Shown here: positions 1 to 4,107 of the stretch, piece by piece | Numbering within the stretch: the stretch's first letter is position 1 | Layout of the letters: the number at the start of each line of letters is the position of its first letter | Position numbers and translations under genes: made by a program | The notes under the pieces: generated by a model | Databases searched by the model: none | The model's input: the letters and a program-made list of their open reading frames with translations, nothing else | What the model was told of the DNA's origin: nothing | Source: a virus | Taxonomy: Duplodnaviria > Heunggongvirae > Uroviricota > Caudoviricetes | Reading direction: 5' to 3' (one strand) | IMG/VR virus record: IMGVR_UViG_2565956724_000001 | Length of the DNA stretch: 4,107 nucleotides

Positions 1-122
1 AGTTGCCATGTTTTACGGCAGTGAGAGCAGAGATAGCGCTGATGTCCGGCAGTGCTTTTGCCGTTACGCACCACCCCGTCAGTAGCTGAACAGGAGGGAC
101 AGCTGATAGAAACAGAAGCCAC
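1..122 (-). CDS. insA: IS1 InsA, N-terminal part (partial CDS running off the window)
   Basis: Minus-strand translation from the GTG at 122-120 gives [41 protein letters not shown]..., the InsA N-terminus as I recall it. The CDS continues past position 1. Confidence 0.8.
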
Positions 123-154
123 TGGAGCACCTCAAAAACACCATCATACACTAA

Positions 155-177
155 ATCAGTAAGTTGGCAGCATCACC
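155..177 (-). repeat. IS1 left terminal inverted repeat (IRL, 23 bp)
   Basis: atcagtaagttggcagcatcacc at 155-177 is the reverse complement of GGTGATGCTGCCAACTTACTGAT. It pairs with the IRR-type end at 3948-3970 (GGTAATGACTCCAACTTATTGAT). Confidence 0.85.
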
Positions 178-396
178 TATCACGGCATGCGAATTGAGCT
201 TAAAGAACCAAATGGTAAAGCCCCGACGAAAGAGCAGATCGCCTGGATGCGCAGGCTTAGAGAGGAAGGTTACTACGTCGTTCTTGCGTATGGTGCAGAA
301 CAAGCGATAACCGCCATCCTGGAATACATAAGCCTTAAAAAGGGTGAGGCTATTGAGCATGTATTGAACGGCGACAAGTGGTTGTATGCTGCTTAA
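178..396 (+). pseudogene. VRR-NUC domain nuclease, 3' fragment; 5' part displaced by the IS1 insertion
   Basis: The frame is open from the IS1 junction (178) to TAA at 394-396. Product ...YHGMRIELKEPNGKAPTKEQIAWMRRLREEGYYVVLAYGAEQAITAILEYI... matches the C-terminal half of the VRR-NUC (PD-(D/E)xK) fold, with the E-x-K element (IELK) and the GK..(S/T)..Q..W..L...G motif. The upstream PD/D element is absent. The listed ATG at 187 has no Shine-Dalgarno and lies 10 nt inside the junction. Confidence 0.6.
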
Positions 397-418
397 AATA
401 ATAAATTAATTAGTGCAT

Positions 419-443
419 ATGTGCTCTTTGATATAGCGCACAT
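419..443. promoter_or_regulatory. Near-palindromic element in an AT-rich intergenic region (possible operator or promoter-associated site)
   Basis: atgtgctct (419-427) and agcgcacat (435-443) form an 8/9 inverted repeat around a 7-bp spacer ttgatat. It lies between the VRR-NUC stop and the next gene, in sequence containing TTGATA- and TTAATT-like hexamers. No convincing -35/-10 pair with proper spacing was found. Confidence 0.25.
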
Positions 444-462
444 TAACATCGGGAGAATAATC

Positions 463-618
463 GTGTCATTCAAGGCTAATTATGAATCGCTGGCATCGAT
501 CATGCCGCGTAATGAACAGGAAGCAGATGCTGTAGTGGACCCGGTAATCGCTGAAATGAATGCTCGCCTGGAGGCTGAATTTGCAGCTGAGAATGAACAT
601 ACCACCCAGGGCGACTAG
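463..618 (+). CDS. Small acidic hypothetical protein (51 aa from GTG; the ORF track offers an ATG at 421 in the same frame)
   Basis: GGGAGA Shine-Dalgarno at 451-456 lies 6 nt upstream of GTG 463. Product VSFKANYESLASIMPRNEQEADAVVDPVIAEMNARLEAEFAAENEHTTQGD. It is co-directional with and overlapped by the next gene. No family recognised. Confidence 0.45.
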   Translation: MSFKANYESLASIMPRNEQEADAVVDPVIAEMNARLEAEFAAENEHTTQGD

Positions 619-1222
619 GACTGTTTTTTGTGTCGGTAGCGGTCCGTCACTCACTCGTGAGGACTGTGCTGCTATAGAAAAAACTGGCTGTTCAATCATC
701 GCGGTTAACAATTCCTGGCAGATGTTCGATGACATTTATGCCTTATACGCCGGTGATTTGTCATGGTGGAAGCAATACGGATCCACCATACCGGGAGGGA
801 GATTCCGCAAAGTGACAGCCAACCTGGCGGCGGCGAAATCATTTTCGTTGGAGTACAGGCGATATTGTGGACCGGCGGAAGGGGTAAATAGCGGCGCGCA
901 GGCTATCAGTCTGGCTGCTGAATCAGGGGCTGAAGTAGTGGTATTAGTCGGCTATGACTGTTCTCTGCAAAACGGCCTTCATTGGCATGGCGCGCACCCT
1001 CAAGCCCTACGGAATCCAACGCAGGTGTCTATTTCAAAATGGCAACAGCAGTTCCTGGATACCCGCAAAAAACACGCAGATTTACATATTTTGAATGCAA
1101 GTAGGAGCAGTGCAATTCAATGTTTCCCAAGAATAAATTTAGAGGCAGTGATCGCGTTATTATCGTCGGCAGTGGCCCAAGCGCCGCAAACTTTGTTGCG
1201 CCGCGCGGAGTGCCGATTATAG
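593..1222 (+). CDS. GSGPSL-motif Rossmann-type protein, paralog 1; GT42 sialyltransferase-like / MptE-like (DUF115) fold candidate
   Basis: Long ORF in frame 2 (track start 560; ATG 593 is an alternative). Has an N-terminal V-x-x-VGSGPSL (GSGPS at 635-649), then IIAVNN, and a C-terminal VNSGAQAISLAAESGAEVVVLVGYD...HWHG block. This resembles the Campylobacter Cst-II pattern (GNGPSL ... TSG..A.ALG..I.L.GID ... H) as I recall it. Start codon uncertain. The 3' end overlaps the next gene by about 100 nt. Confidence 0.6.
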   Translation: MNIPPRATRTVFCVGSGPSLTREDCAAIEKTGCSIIAVNNSWQMFDDIYALYAGDLSWWKQYGSTIPGGRFRKVTANLAAAKSFSLEYRRYCGPAEGVNSGAQAISLAAESGAEVVVLVGYDCSLQNGLHWHGAHPQALRNPTQVSISKWQQQFLDTRKKHADLHILNASRSSAIQCFPRINLEAVIALLSSAVAQAPQTLLRRAECRL

Positions 1223-1746
1223 CGGTCAATGGGGCCATCGACTGGCTTAACCGCGCTTCTTATTTTTTCACCCTTGATCCATCGCCAGACAATATGCGGC
1301 GCGTTGGTCGTGGCCGCCGTCGCCGTGGTGTTTGTTATTGCATGGCACTACCCGATGTTAAAGAACGTGAAGTCAGAGATGGCGTTCTGTGCTTCCGTCG
1401 TGTGGCTGAGCGCGGCACGGAGCCAAAAAATACGAATTCTCCCGAGTGGTGGGCGTGGCGCTGGTCCGCACATTTCGGCCTTTGCGAAGATGAGAATGAA
1501 ATTGCCAGCGGCAATAGTGCATATGGTGCTCTGAACCTGGCTTTCCATATCGGATTCAAACATGTCGCCCTGGTGGGCGTTGACGCTACACAAGAACCAC
1601 GCGTTCACTCCGGCGGCACGCCAAAAAATCTAAGTCACCTGCCTTTGTTATTCCAGTCTGCGCGTGAACAGATTGACGTTGTTTCATGCGGGAAAATGGG
1701 AGGTATTCCGCAGATGACTCTTAAAGAATGGCTGAAGAATACATGA
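1120..1746 (+). CDS. GSGPS-motif Rossmann-type protein, paralog 2, with an Arg/Cys-rich central insertion; GT42-like / MptE-like fold candidate
   Basis: AGGAG at 1103-1107 precedes ATG 1120. N-terminal VIIVGSGPS (1168-1182), then IIAVNG, and C-terminal [28 protein letters not shown]...HSGG align with paralog 1 on both sides within one frame. Stop TGA 1744-1746 overlaps the ATG of the phosphatase gene. Confidence 0.6.
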
Positions 1747-2420
1747 TGGCACCCACAATTTATCACCGTATCGACGGTACCAAATACAGGAATGTCTGGG
1801 TTGTTGGTGATCTGCATGGTTGCTACACCAGACTGATGTCCGAACTCCATCGTGTGGATTTTGACCCGGCGCAGGATTTACTGATATCGGTCGGCGACCT
1901 TATCGATCGCGGTACTGAAAATGTCGAATGTCTGGAACTATTGCAGATGCCCTGGTTCAGGGCAGTGATGGGGAACCATGAGCGGCTGATGATTGATGCG
2001 TTAAGTCCAGATGGCAACGTGAATAACTGGCTAATGAATGGCGGTCAATGGTTCTTCATGCTGGACGCTGATCAGGAAATATTAGCCAGGGCGCTGGTGG
2101 AGTTGGTAAGACGACTGCCCTATATCATTGAGTTGAACACCGGGCAAGAAACTATCGTTATAGCCCATGCCGACTATCCGGATAATGAATATCAATTCGG
2201 TAAGGAGGTGCCGCTTTTCAACGTTGTCTGGGCGCGCGAGCGTATCAGTGATTCGATGGATGATATTGGTGGCGAAATTTCTGGCGCAGATCGTTTTATC
2301 TTTGGTCACACTCCGGTGAAAAGCCCGAAGACATTCTGGAATCAGCATTATATCGACACAGGTGCCGTATTTTGCGGAAACCTGACATTGATGAAAGTGA
2401 AAGGTGATGGTGCAGCATGA
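1743..2420 (+). CDS. Ser/Thr protein phosphatase, PPP family, bacteriophage-lambda-phosphatase-like
   Basis: All three PPP signature motifs are present: GDLHG (1806-1820), GDLIDRG and GNHE. The whole product resembles lambda phosphatase as I recall it (..[56 protein letters not shown]..). Start ambiguous (ATG 1728, 1743 or 1746); 1743 overlaps the upstream stop as ATGA. End 2420 is firm. Confidence 0.85.
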
Positions 2421-3118
2421 AGATTGCTTTAGTTCTTCGCTCTGGTGGTGACTATAACGCTTCCGATGTGCAGTGGCTGGTTAATCAACTGCCAAAAGGC
2501 TATGAAATTATTTGCCTGACAGACCTGAAGCGTTTACATGTACCTGGCGTCAAAGTTGTCCCATTGATCAACCAGTGGCAAAAGTGCCGTGGCTGGTGGG
2601 CGAAAATCGAGTTGTTCCGACCGGATATAACCGATGATCTGTTCTATCTGGATTTGGACACGGTTATTGCCGGTGATATACGCCCAATCCTAGAGAATCC
2701 ACCAACCAGCTTCACCATGCTTAGGGATTTTTACCATCCACAATATCGTGGCAGCGGTGCCCTGTGGATACCAAATAGTGTAAAAGCGCATATCTGGAGT
2801 GCATTCTGGCAAGATCCGGAAGGTTGGATTGCTCGTTGTGTTACTACTGAATGCTGGGGTGAGCAGGGGTTTTTGCGGAAGGTTATGGGTGATGATACAC
2901 CAGCATTTCAGGATCTGTATCCGGGATGGTTTGTAAGTTACAAGGCCGATGTTGTGGAACCTGGTTCGAAATATGCGAGCGCGCGTTACTCCAGGGGGAA
3001 TGGGGCATTACCAAAAGACTGCCGAATAATCTTTTTCCACGGCAAACCGCGACCTCGCGAAGTGTCAGAGGATTGGCTTCCCCTTATCAGCTCATTTTTT
3101 GAGCGAGAATCAGAATAA
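2417..3118 (+). CDS. DxD-motif protein, putative GT-A-fold nucleotide-sugar transferase (function uncertain)
   Basis: ATG 2417-2419 overlaps the phosphatase stop TGA 2418-2420. Has an N-terminal beta-strand-like KIALVL..GGDYN, a hydrophobic stretch, then D-L-D (FYLDLDTVI, 2651-2659), and a C-terminal FFHGKPRP reminiscent of the H-x-x-G-x-x-KPW element of GT8 enzymes. Followed by a terminator. Confidence 0.55.
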
Positions 3119-3146
3119 TATTGCTCTAATAATTCCATATTTTTAA

Positions 3147-3174
3147 AACGTGATGTACACTCATCACGTTTTTT
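3147..3174. terminator. Rho-independent terminator hairpin, probably bidirectional, inside a larger 64-bp palindrome
   Basis: 9-bp stem aacgtgatg (3147-3155) / catcacgtt (3162-3170) with loop tacact, then a run of six T on + (3169-3174) and an A/T tract on the other side. Flanked by perfect 12-bp inverted repeats ttgctctaataa (3121-3132) / ttattagagcaa (3173-3184). Sits 29 nt after the stop of the DxD gene. Confidence 0.55.
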
Positions 3175-3199
3175 ATTAGAGCAATCTATAAGGTGCACT

Positions 3200-3418
3200 A
3201 TGTGGCCATTCCGACGGAAATATCACTACTGGCTGATCGCCTTTGTTACGCCGACCGGCGGTATCAGGCATGTCATCACCAGGTATCGCAACAAGAGACT
3301 CACCTTAGCCAGAATTTTACAGGCTGCCATAGGTGAGGGACTGGATACAAATTGCGTAGTCCTTCCACCTTCATACTTAGGAAAAATGACCGAAGCACAA
3401 GCTAATACGGAACTTTGA
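3200..3418 (+). CDS. Hypothetical protein (72 aa)
   Basis: ORF with AAGGTG 5-10 nt upstream of ATG 3200. No recognisable motif; contains several rare Arg/Ile codons. A competing antisense ORF (3226-3447, TTG start, no RBS) covers the same DNA, so coding status is uncertain. Confidence 0.3.
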   Translation: MWPFRRKYHYWLIAFVTPTGGIRHVITRYRNKRLTLARILQAAIGEGLDTNCVVLPPSYLGKMTEAQANTEL

Positions 3419-3577
3419 AATGAGCACTTCAGCACAAAACCAATCAATCGAAAATGTATCTAGAGGAAACTGCGGCAAGAAGACTTCTCGATGTTTGCTA
3501 TGCACGTAGCGATGCATGGGAAAAAGAGAACGGCGGCACTATTTACGTTCGCTGATAGTTACAGTGTCACTTTTAAT

Positions 3578-3608
3578 GCTGGTGGAGTGCTCCCACCAGC
3601 ATTTTTTT
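3578..3608 (+). terminator. Rho-independent terminator
   Basis: GC-rich hairpin gctggtggag (3578-3587) / ctcccaccagc (3590-3600) with a one-base bulge, followed by TTTTTTT (3602-3608). Confidence 0.6.
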
Positions 3609-3627
3609 CGTCCAATGAGGAGGGCAT

Positions 3628-3947
3628 TTGAGTATTTTCAATAAACACGCACACCAGGAACGTCCGTACATCGTCATAGTAGATATTGATGGGACGATAT
3701 CAGAGGCAACGGAAGACAGGCTGCATTTACTTCCACCACCTGGCAAAGGTGCATTAACAGAGCACTGGAACGAGTTTAACCTTGCCTGTGACACTGATGC
3801 TCCCATCACTCCAGTTATTGATATGGTGCGCCAGTTGTCCGGCATTTACACCCTCTGGTTTGTAACCGGGCGCTGTGAGATAGCCAGGGATAAAACACGA
3901 GCCTGGTTGCGTAAGCACGTAACAAATGGGGCTGAGCCTTTGCTATC
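3628..3947 (+). pseudogene. HAD-superfamily phosphatase, PNK-3'-phosphatase-like, 5' fragment truncated by the IS1 insertion
   Basis: Strong Shine-Dalgarno GAGGAGG (3617-3623), then TTG start at 3628. HAD motif I D-I-D-G-T at 3682-3696 (IVIVDIDGTIS); downstream CDTD...TPVIDMV...VTGR resembles the T4 polynucleotide kinase phosphatase domain as I recall it. The reading frame runs directly into the IS1 end at 3948, so the native C-terminal motifs are missing; the last 6 codons plus the stop of the listed ORF are IS1-encoded. Confidence 0.6.
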
Positions 3948-3970
3948 GGTAATGACTCCAACTTATTGAT
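3948..3970 (-). repeat. IS1 right terminal inverted repeat (IRR, 23 bp)
   Basis: ggtaatgactccaacttattgat at 3948-3970; imperfect inverted repeat partner of the end at 155-177. Confidence 0.85.
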
Positions 3971-4107
3971 AGTGTTTTATGTTCAGATAATGCCCGATGA
4001 CTTTGTCATGCAGCTCCACCGATTTTGAGAACGACAGCGACTTCCGTCCCAGCCGTGCCAGGTGCTGCCTCAGATTCAGGTTATGCCGCTCAATTCGCTG
4101 CGTATAT
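3963..4107 (-). CDS. insB: IS1 InsB (InsAB' transposase), C-terminal part (partial CDS running off the window)
   Basis: Minus-strand translation ends ...[47 protein letters not shown] with stop TAA (complement of 3963-3965) inside the IRR. Confidence 0.8.

Follow-up and report, generated by a model that had tools for sequence, protein, structure and literature searches.

The stretch of DNA considered here, a window of 4,107 nucleotides (nt) from IMG/VR virus record IMGVR_UViG_2565956724_000001, begins and ends within the insertion sequence (IS) IS1 and holds, between the two IS1 ends, a 3.77-kb remnant of phage P1, a layout that raises the question of whether the remnant and its flanking IS1 copies form a mobile unit or record how this DNA was rearranged. 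The original prediction, made from the letters of the window, described a phage segment bracketed by two IS1 copies in direct orientation, each interrupting a gene, recognised in it the geometry of a Tn9-like composite or translocatable unit, and held two independent insertions or an IS1-mediated rearrangement to be more likely than one simple event. The best explanation, to which we assign a probability of about 0.8, is that the remnant lies between two IS1 copies by history, the left joint being inherited and the right one stemming from an IS1-associated inversion and the loss of a neighbouring block of hsd genes. Direct-repeat bracketing of the segment would then be a by-product of IS1 rearrangements. 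Below we set out the evidence for this history, the routes that could have produced the same structure, and the plasmid in which it resides.

The IS1 ends and their flanks

The window is exactly one contig (positions 6374-10480 of L007, our label for the stretch of NCBI scaffold KI538793.1 that holds it) of Escherichia coli UMEA 3148-1, set off within the 109,782-bp draft scaffold by a run of 750 N to its left and one of 385 N to its right. It begins and ends inside IS1 because the assembler was unable to cross the repeat, of which the plasmid of this strain carries at least five copies. In the Logan assembly of run SRR786011, an independent contig equal to window 150-3976 spans both IS1/P1 joints, which are therefore independently supported by reads.

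The window termini, the ends of the insA and insB coding regions and the logic of their orientation are identical, or nearly so, to those of the 768-bp IS1 of the IS1A/IS1B type from Enterobacteriaceae. What is seen of the left copy, IS1_B, is the end bearing the left terminal inverted repeat (IRL) with the first 41 codons of insA (1-177, minus strand), and that of the right copy, IS1_C, the end bearing the right terminal inverted repeat (IRR) with the last 47 codons of insB (3948-4107, minus strand), the contig breaking inside the repeat in each case. The left fragment is identical at 177/177 positions to the last 177 bases of a complete 768-bp IS1 in plasmid p1585m1_C (L001 6001-6768), and gene calls on the source scaffold placed the PF03811 Zn_ribbon_InsA family on it (L007 6374-6495) and PF03400 DDE_Tnp_IS1 on the right fragment (L007 10336-10480). 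IRL (GGTGATGCTGCCAACTTACTGAT...) is present as its reverse complement at 155-177 and IRR (GGTAATGACTCCAACTTATTGAT...) at 3948-3970. With the transposase genes of both fragments on the minus strand, the copies are in direct orientation, and the IS1 alignment together with the InsA and InsB calls confirms an IRL end at 177 and an IRR end at 3948, as had been proposed.

For full-length IS1 copies beyond the window edges, which the original prediction suggested looking for, the scaffold supplies the far ends in the right orientation: 53 bases of the IRR end of IS1_B (L007 5571-5623, with C at IS1 position 19) across the 750-N gap, and 81 bases of the IRL end of IS1_C (L007 10866-10946), adjoining P1 lydC, across the 385-N gap. 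Both ends of both copies are thus present and both middles lie unassembled inside the gaps. IS1_B has C19 and G761, IS1_C has T19, T55 and A761, and the differences at positions 19 and 761 show that two distinct IS1 copies flank the segment. Consistently, window 3948-4107 has two mismatches to the first 160 bases of the p1585m1_C IS1 (the IS1_B counterpart), and is identical over all 160 to a further copy on the UMEA 3148-1 scaffold, IS1_X, and to the IS1 that lies between a truncated gene 23 (gene 23') and a truncated lydC ('lydC) in plasmid A of strain H15.

Where a simple IS1 insertion would leave a duplication of 9 bp, within a range of 8-11 bp, none was found on comparing the flanks of IS1_B (AACTGCGGG versus TATCACGGC), IS1_C (TTTGCTATC versus GGCTCATTC) or IS1_X (CATCATTCG versus GGAGACGTG), and the window copies each mark a rearrangement joint. 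Target-site duplications had also been suggested as something to seek beyond the window edges; the outermost flanks, AACTGCGGG and GGCTCATTC, show none. Missing duplications are expected of rearrangement joints and are no argument against identity as IS1. The inner flanks, tatcacggc at 178-186 and tttgctatc at 3939-3947, were quoted correctly and are indeed not identical. Both abutting genes are truncated, again as described, with only nt 361-579 left of pmgM and nt 1-320 of the 507 of pap. What does not hold is that each IS1 copy interrupts a gene, for the DNA outside the left copy is a fragment of a restriction-endonuclease gene and that outside the right copy is P1 lydC, so that neither missing half is found there.

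Inherited and novel joints

The left joint, including 163 bases of P1 flank, is identical at 340/340 positions in p1585m1_C, in LT883139 plasmid I and in the chromosome record of strain NCTC9040. On its outer side, all three carry trhR, a second IS1 in opposite orientation and the truncated restriction-endonuclease gene; at the other end of the segment, pap is intact and is followed by EcoR124-family hsdR-hsdS-hsdM and then by phd/doc. Judged by this conservation, the left joint is an inherited junction of P1 with foreign DNA and not an insertion into pmgM.

Several observations concern the surroundings of this joint. To the left of the window, IS1_A (opposite orientation, diverged, about 96% identical) and IS1_B form an inverted pair (L007 3618-6550) around 843 bp with the truncated gene for a restriction endonuclease that binds phosphorothioated DNA and a 61-amino-acid (aa) open reading frame (ORF), a layout conserved in p1585m1_C, LT883139 and NCTC9040. 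The record of H15 plasmid A (NZ_CP010179.1; L012 position 1, L013 position 16418) opens exactly at the pmgM' joint and continues directly with trhR, with no IS1_B, endonuclease fragment or IS1_A in between, which looks like repeat collapse at circularisation, not biology. In NCTC9040 (L006; NZ_LR134247.1, 2119371-2133710), the whole P1-derived element of mobility type MOBH, including the IS1_B/pmgM' joint, lies within the chromosome record; either the plasmid is integrated or the assembly merged it into the chromosome.

The right joint has a different distribution. Not one of 5,426 complete E. coli genomes, 72,556 PLSDB plasmids and 50,697 phage records contains it, and an exact-pattern scan of 185,579 GTDB species-representative genomes gave no match either, a set with one genome per species that is uninformative for E. 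coli strains. The pap' ORF reads into IS1 and stops at 3969, giving a 113-aa fusion protein (ESP38497.1, G917_04889) whose exact sequence is on one NCBI scaffold only. Among the records searched, the right joint was found only in UMEA 3148-1, and to that extent appears specific to it. Beyond the right IS1, the scaffold resumes at P1 31312 inside lydC and reads into lydA-lydB-darA; this outer flank is identical over 600/600 bp to H15 plasmid A, which has an IS1 at exactly the same lydC position, its IRR end abutting the truncated gene 23 beside parB. The right IS1 is not the resident IS1 of P1, which lies at about 22.6 kb, there being no P1 IS1 at 31312.

A second pap::IS1 configuration came to light in the same searches. 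At least 22 complete E. coli plasmids of the pHS30-1 type carry an IS1 in pap, in the same orientation and 8 bp 3' of the window joint (L003 3158-3170 against window 3939-3955). They have a different pap allele, and the other side of their IS1 is joined upstream of phd/doc, so pmgT through humD has been deleted there; the 8-bp offset, the allele and the phd/doc linkage led us to reject identity with the event at the window joint. To judge from these sequences, pap appears to be a hot spot for IS1 insertion.

The fate of the ancestral IS1 was traced through the gene 23'-IS1 read-through protein, which in UMEA 3148-1 is G917_04859, 30 locus tags upstream of the window fusion protein. In L025 (scaffold positions 4210-25424), the order is repA, parA, parB, gene 23', IS1_X, hsdM from nt 612 to nt 1 on the opposite strand, phd, doc and, further on, c1. 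The assembly of IS1_X is free of gaps over all 768 bp; the copy encodes a full 232-aa InsAB (PF03811, PF12759, PF03400) and has its IRR against gene 23' and its IRL against hsdM nt 612; the fusion locus thus establishes that this IRL end abuts hsdM and not the 3' part of pap. A gene 23'-IS1-lydA arrangement is found in at least five other assemblies, and gene 23'-IS1-hsdM' only in UMEA 3148-1. IS1_X is identical to the visible parts of IS1_C (160/160 and 81/81, that is, 241 bases, the remaining 527 being unassembled), including a private 761A absent from the H15 plasmid A copy and from IS1_B, and the two lie in opposite orientations on the scaffold. This 761A (L025 11954, L007 10939) falls within the left terminal inverted repeat, which reads GGTGATGTTGCC instead of GGTGATGCTGCC.

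The reciprocal joint of a one-step inversion (IRL against TTTGCTATC and the 3' part of pap; joint letters GCAGCATCACC/GCAACATCACC followed by TTTGCTATCTATGCG) had been sought through its predicted ORF. A homology search with the 69-aa version returned 14 fragments and no exact product, and exact look-up of the 61-aa and 64-aa versions gave matches in many unrelated contexts, such as frameshifted pap genes, with none from UMEA 3148-1 among the matches listed. This route was rejected as non-diagnostic in favour of the gene 23'-IS1 fusion protein.

Set side by side, the two arrangements can be compared base by base. The ancestral order, represented by H15 plasmid A and LT883139, is 'lydC, IS1, gene 23', repA, mobH and mobI, IS1_A, IS1_B, pmgM' through pap, and then hsdR, hsdS, hsdM, phd and doc; UMEA 3148-1 reads doc, phd, hsdM(1-612), IS1_X, gene 23', repA, mobI, IS1_A, IS1_B, pmgM' through pap(1-320), IS1_C, 'lydC and lydA. 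Given the scaffold join, a block of about 20 kb from gene 23' through repA, mobI and IS1_B to pap' is therefore inverted with respect to the rest of the plasmid when set against H15 plasmid A. Each sister copy keeps one ancestral joint, gene 23' against IRR for IS1_X and, again given the join, IRL against 'lydC for IS1_C, and each has one novel joint, IRL against hsdM nt 612 for IS1_X and IRR against pap nt 320 for IS1_C. The stretch from pap nt 321 through hsdR and hsdS to hsdM nt 613, which measures 5,257-5,866 bp in the relatives, is missing from that position. The relatives differ accordingly from UMEA 3148-1 in having an intact pap ahead of hsdR-hsdS-hsdM, a single IS1 at gene 23'/lydC instead of two, and no inversion.

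According to PMC9330008, which cites Turlan & Chandler 1995, intramolecular replicative transposition results in an inversion or an adjacent deletion, IS1/Tn9 being one of the systems for which this is documented. The IS1 between gene 23' and lydC may accordingly be pictured as having transposed in the inversion mode into pap or hsdM, a mode suggested by the bracketing of the inverted block by inverted sister copies; an adjacent deletion by IS1, suggested by the missing stretch starting exactly at an IS end, would have removed the hsd block before or after the inversion. Since the novel joints lie at separate targets, a single event does not suffice, and the two events may have come in either order. 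The likeness to such IS1 rearrangements extends to an inverted block between inverted sister copies, each with one old and one novel joint, and plasmid reorganisations by IS26 are analogous; in contrast to a single IS1 inversion event, the UMEA 3148-1 plasmid has its novel joints at two sites and shows no split 9-bp duplication. The earlier preference for an IS1-mediated rearrangement over one simple event is borne out by this reconstruction, and that for two independent insertions is not, for the left joint is old and inherited and the right one is one of two novel inversion-plus-deletion joints of a pre-existing IS1.

Competing routes to the same layout

Several points weigh against this history. 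One inversion event predicts a single target and a shared 9-bp duplication, and the novel joints lie 5,257-5,866 bp apart. The link from the window through IS1 to 'lydC crosses an N-gap and rests on the scaffolding of the depositor, which may have made a wrong join, the plasmid carrying at least five copies of IS1 and the chromosome further ones. Assembly stops short of the internal 527 bp of IS1_C and 538 bp of IS1_B, and the full length of both copies is presumed from their ends. The loss of hsd was seen at this position only, and in a look-up with HsdR none of the 24 blocks read, out of 352, was from UMEA 3148-1. Lastly, whether transposase or RecA did the work, the resulting structure would be the same and does not tell the two apart.

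It is this last point that sustains the strongest competitor, an equivalent route through possible recombination between IS1 copies, in which no transposase is needed for the rearrangement itself. A simple insertion of IS1 into pap, hsdM or both would have been followed by RecA-dependent IS1-IS1 recombination, inverting the repA-mobI-pap' part and deleting hsd, and the final topology would be identical. Plasmids often acquire deletions and inversions through recombination between IS copies (PMC9330008), and the apparent IS1 hot spot in pap, occupied in the pHS30-1-type plasmids only 8 bp from the joint, is in its favour. Yet at least three events are required (one or two insertions plus recombination), the 761A common to IS1_X and IS1_C fits the duplication of one copy more simply, even if gene conversion could also explain it, and neither the joint searches nor the ORF searches found an intermediate with a simple insertion and a duplication of TTTGCTATC. 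We regard this route as a tentative alternative to inversion-mode transposition with adjacent deletion.

An artefact of scaffolding, in which the right IS1 end is really linked to another IS1 flank and the inversion is wrong, is unlikely. The join does cross a 385-N gap in a multicopy repeat, and the gap sizes (385 and 750) and the visible ends do not sum exactly to 768. Nevertheless, the gap-free contig running from gene 23' through IS1_X to hsdM' already breaks the ancestral arrangement and leaves IRL against 'lydC and pap' against IRR as unpaired joints, both of which carry the IS1_X variant (T19, T55, 761A) and not that of IS1_B. Given this contig and the common variant, pap'-IS1-'lydC is the most economical pairing.

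That the 5.3-kb stretch of IS1_B, remnant and IS1_C is an active or future Tn9-like transposon or a 4.5-kb excisable circle that spreads the ppp phosphatase gene and the glycosyltransferase-like genes pmgO, pmgP and pmgQ to other replicons, with the IS1_X/IS1_C pair flipping the 20-kb replicon-mobilisation block, seems to us highly improbable. IS1-IS1 recombination could delete the segment or release a circle of 4,538 bp, which is true of any direct IS pair and of which no sign was observed, and IS1 transposase could in principle move the segment, with no sign that it has moved.

The geometry of a direct IS1 pair matches Tn9. As in Tn9 (IS1-cat-IS1), a direct pair flanks a few kilobases here, and both the outer IRR on the left and the outer IRL on the right are present, the latter with a G-to-A change, so that this layout, as originally described, stands. 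A history in which IS1, P1 segment and IS1 moved, or move, as one piece is nonetheless hardly credible. The outer 9-bp flanks differ, leaving no duplication around the unit; relatives without the right IS1 already have the left joint; the DNA outside each copy runs collinear with the ancestral plasmid; no second context was found in the complete E. coli genomes, plasmids, phage records and GTDB representatives, the right joint itself being in no other record; and, unlike Tn9, the unit has cargo without an obvious selectable gene and IS1 copies with separate, traceable histories. A Tn9-like history is thus largely refuted, and the unit is only potentially, not demonstrably, a Tn9-like transposon.

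Equally implausible is that both ends belong to one IS1 on a circle of 4,538 bp (3,770 + 768), be it an excised circle or a small replicon seen across its origin, for although a contig starting and ending in the same repeat in the same orientation is expected of a circle, the scaffold puts unique DNA beyond both copies, what is visible of the copies beyond the gaps tells them apart, by C versus T at position 19 and G versus A at position 761, three complete records share the left joint together with its outer flank, and the segment lacks a replication gene. This case, which the original prediction named as one that would overturn it, is excluded as far as the scaffold allows; a minor subpopulation of excised circles of the segment may exist.

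The P1 remnant and the plasmid that carries it

The inner 3,770 bp match P1, P7, RCS47, SJ46 and other Punavirus records over 100% of their length at 97.4-98.6% identity and correspond to P1 79210-84106 (NC_005856.1), in the order pmgM'-pmgN-pmgO-pmgP-ppp-pmgQ-pmgR-pmgS remnant-pap'. The pmgM-pap region of P1 has the same gene order and three operators of the C1 repressor at 96-98% identity, from which the window departs in lacking the first 360 nt of pmgM, in a 1,127-bp internal deletion in pmgS and in lacking the last 187 nt of pap, and also in sitting on a defective plasmid and not in a phage. Over its 3,770 bp, the segment is matched at 100% identity by p1585m1_C and H15 plasmid A.

All genes of the segment lie on the plus strand. 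The VRR-NUC nuclease gene pmgM' (178-396), collinear with P1 from 79210 onward, consists of the 3' 219 nt (nt 361-579), the 5' 360 nt being absent; its product matches positions 124-192 of the 192 of phrog_2363, and RefSeq labels it in the relatives "VRR-NUC domain-containing protein, missing N-terminus". Next come a homologue of the C1 operator Oppp (Op83; 403-419, minus strand), 16/17 identical to the annotated P1 operator and assigned its putative function from the P1 annotation; pmgN (463-618, 51 aa; phrog_2350, E = 3e-37); pmgO (560-1222, 220 aa; phrog_4603, E = 4e-74), annotated as alpha-2,3-sialyltransferase-like/MptE-like and with a weak match to PF01973, below the cut-off; and pmgP (1120-1746, 208 aa; phrog_2111, E = 4e-132). 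These gene assignments, like those of ppp, pmgQ and pmgR, follow the P1 annotation. The gene ppp (1743-2420, or from 1728 by the start in the P1 annotation) would encode a lambda NinI-like Ser/Thr protein phosphatase of the metallophosphoesterase type (PF00149, 59 bits, above the cut-off; phrog_246, E = 4e-112), and pmgQ (2417-3118, 233 aa) is a putative glycosyltransferase by PHROG annotation (phrog_1962, E = 4e-127). Two further C1 operators, OpmgRa (3120-3136) and OpmgRb (3169-3185), each 17/17 identical to the annotated P1 operator and with the promoter PpmgR between them, together occupy 3120-3185 ahead of pmgR (3200-3418, 72 aa; phrog_3177, E = 4e-47). Family scans of the segment found no replication gene and no obvious selectable gene.

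The pmgS remnant (3420-3555) results from the internal 1,127-bp deletion, which is out of frame and has its joint at 3461/3462 with 2 bp of TA microhomology; the two BLAST blocks that meet there, 178-3462 and 3461-3947, correspond to positions 3001-6285 and 7411-7897 of the P1 locus. The same deletion is present in p1585m1_C and H15 plasmid A, to judge by their 100% one-piece matches, and absent from P1, LT883139 and NCTC9040, and it thus marks a sub-lineage of the plasmid family. The 5' 320 of the 507 nt of pap (3628-3947), a HAD/PNKP-type phosphatase gene, were delimited by alignment with the intact pap of P1 and p1585m1_C, and PF25109 matches the fragment in part and intact Pap in full. The pap'-IS1 product aligns over its entire length with phrog_36358, whose profile has exactly 113 positions as well (E = 4.5e-77), despite which the joint is in no phage record of the collection. 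The three C1 operators are conserved and the c1 repressor gene is on the same scaffold (L025 19881-20732), and C1 therefore probably continues to repress the remaining ppp and pmgR operons as it does in a P1 lysogen.

Judged by its gene content, the UMEA 3148-1 plasmid, of roughly 110 kb, is a decayed, defective derivative of the P1 phage-plasmid that has gained mobI. The scaffold carries repA (Rep3_N), parA, parB, c1 (PF27008), phd/doc and MobI, and p1585m1_C (NZ_CP086387.1; typed IncY/MOBH), H15 plasmid A, LT883139 plasmid I and the NCTC9040 element have P1 repA-parAB, c1, phd/doc and mobI/mobH like it. The gene for the major head protein, gene 23, is broken off at codon 397 of about 567, and the family lacks about 26 kb of P1 from between this gene and lydC, with tail, baseplate and C-segment genes, so that the element cannot form virions. 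In place of these genes, the ancestral IS1 joins gene 23' on its IRR side to 'lydC at P1 31312 (H15 plasmid A, L012 14006-15966; L025 10001-11961), a gene 23'-IS1-'lydC joint that is the same in H15 plasmid A and LT883139. Decay of P1-like phage-plasmids into mobilisable plasmids has been described (Pfeifer and Rocha, PMC10879196), and the UMEA 3148-1 plasmid fits that class. The gene 23'-IS1 fusion protein was seen on 283 contigs, including human gut metagenomes, from which it follows that the plasmid lineage is common.

The hsd genes of the relatives provide a side observation. HsdS of p1585m1_C (L001 14228-15463) has 411 aa and is made up of two copies of the same half-protein with a (TAEL)3 spacer between them; HsdS of H15 plasmid A (L013 8333-8959) is only a 208-aa half, and the 411-aa protein is not in a collection of 15 billion proteins. 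The number of TAEL repeats distinguishes EcoR124I from EcoR124II.

The analysis identifies the source of the window, accounts for its IS1 ends as contig breaks and reconstructs an inversion and a deletion at the level of single bases. All of the parts and processes are known, the layout is an ordinary by-product of successive IS1 rearrangements with no sign of a new mobile unit, and its significance beyond UMEA 3148-1 is small. For the interpretation of short-read assemblies, it shows that a contig starting and ending in the same IS can mimic a composite transposon, where here it is unique DNA between two repeat-induced assembly breaks. For the plasmid family, it offers a traceable case of the reshaping of a P1-derived plasmid by IS1, from the ancestral loss of 26 kb of virion genes to the strain-specific inversion of the replicon and mobilisation region and the loss of a type I restriction-modification operon; this putative loss of hsdRSM could change which DNA the host accepts.

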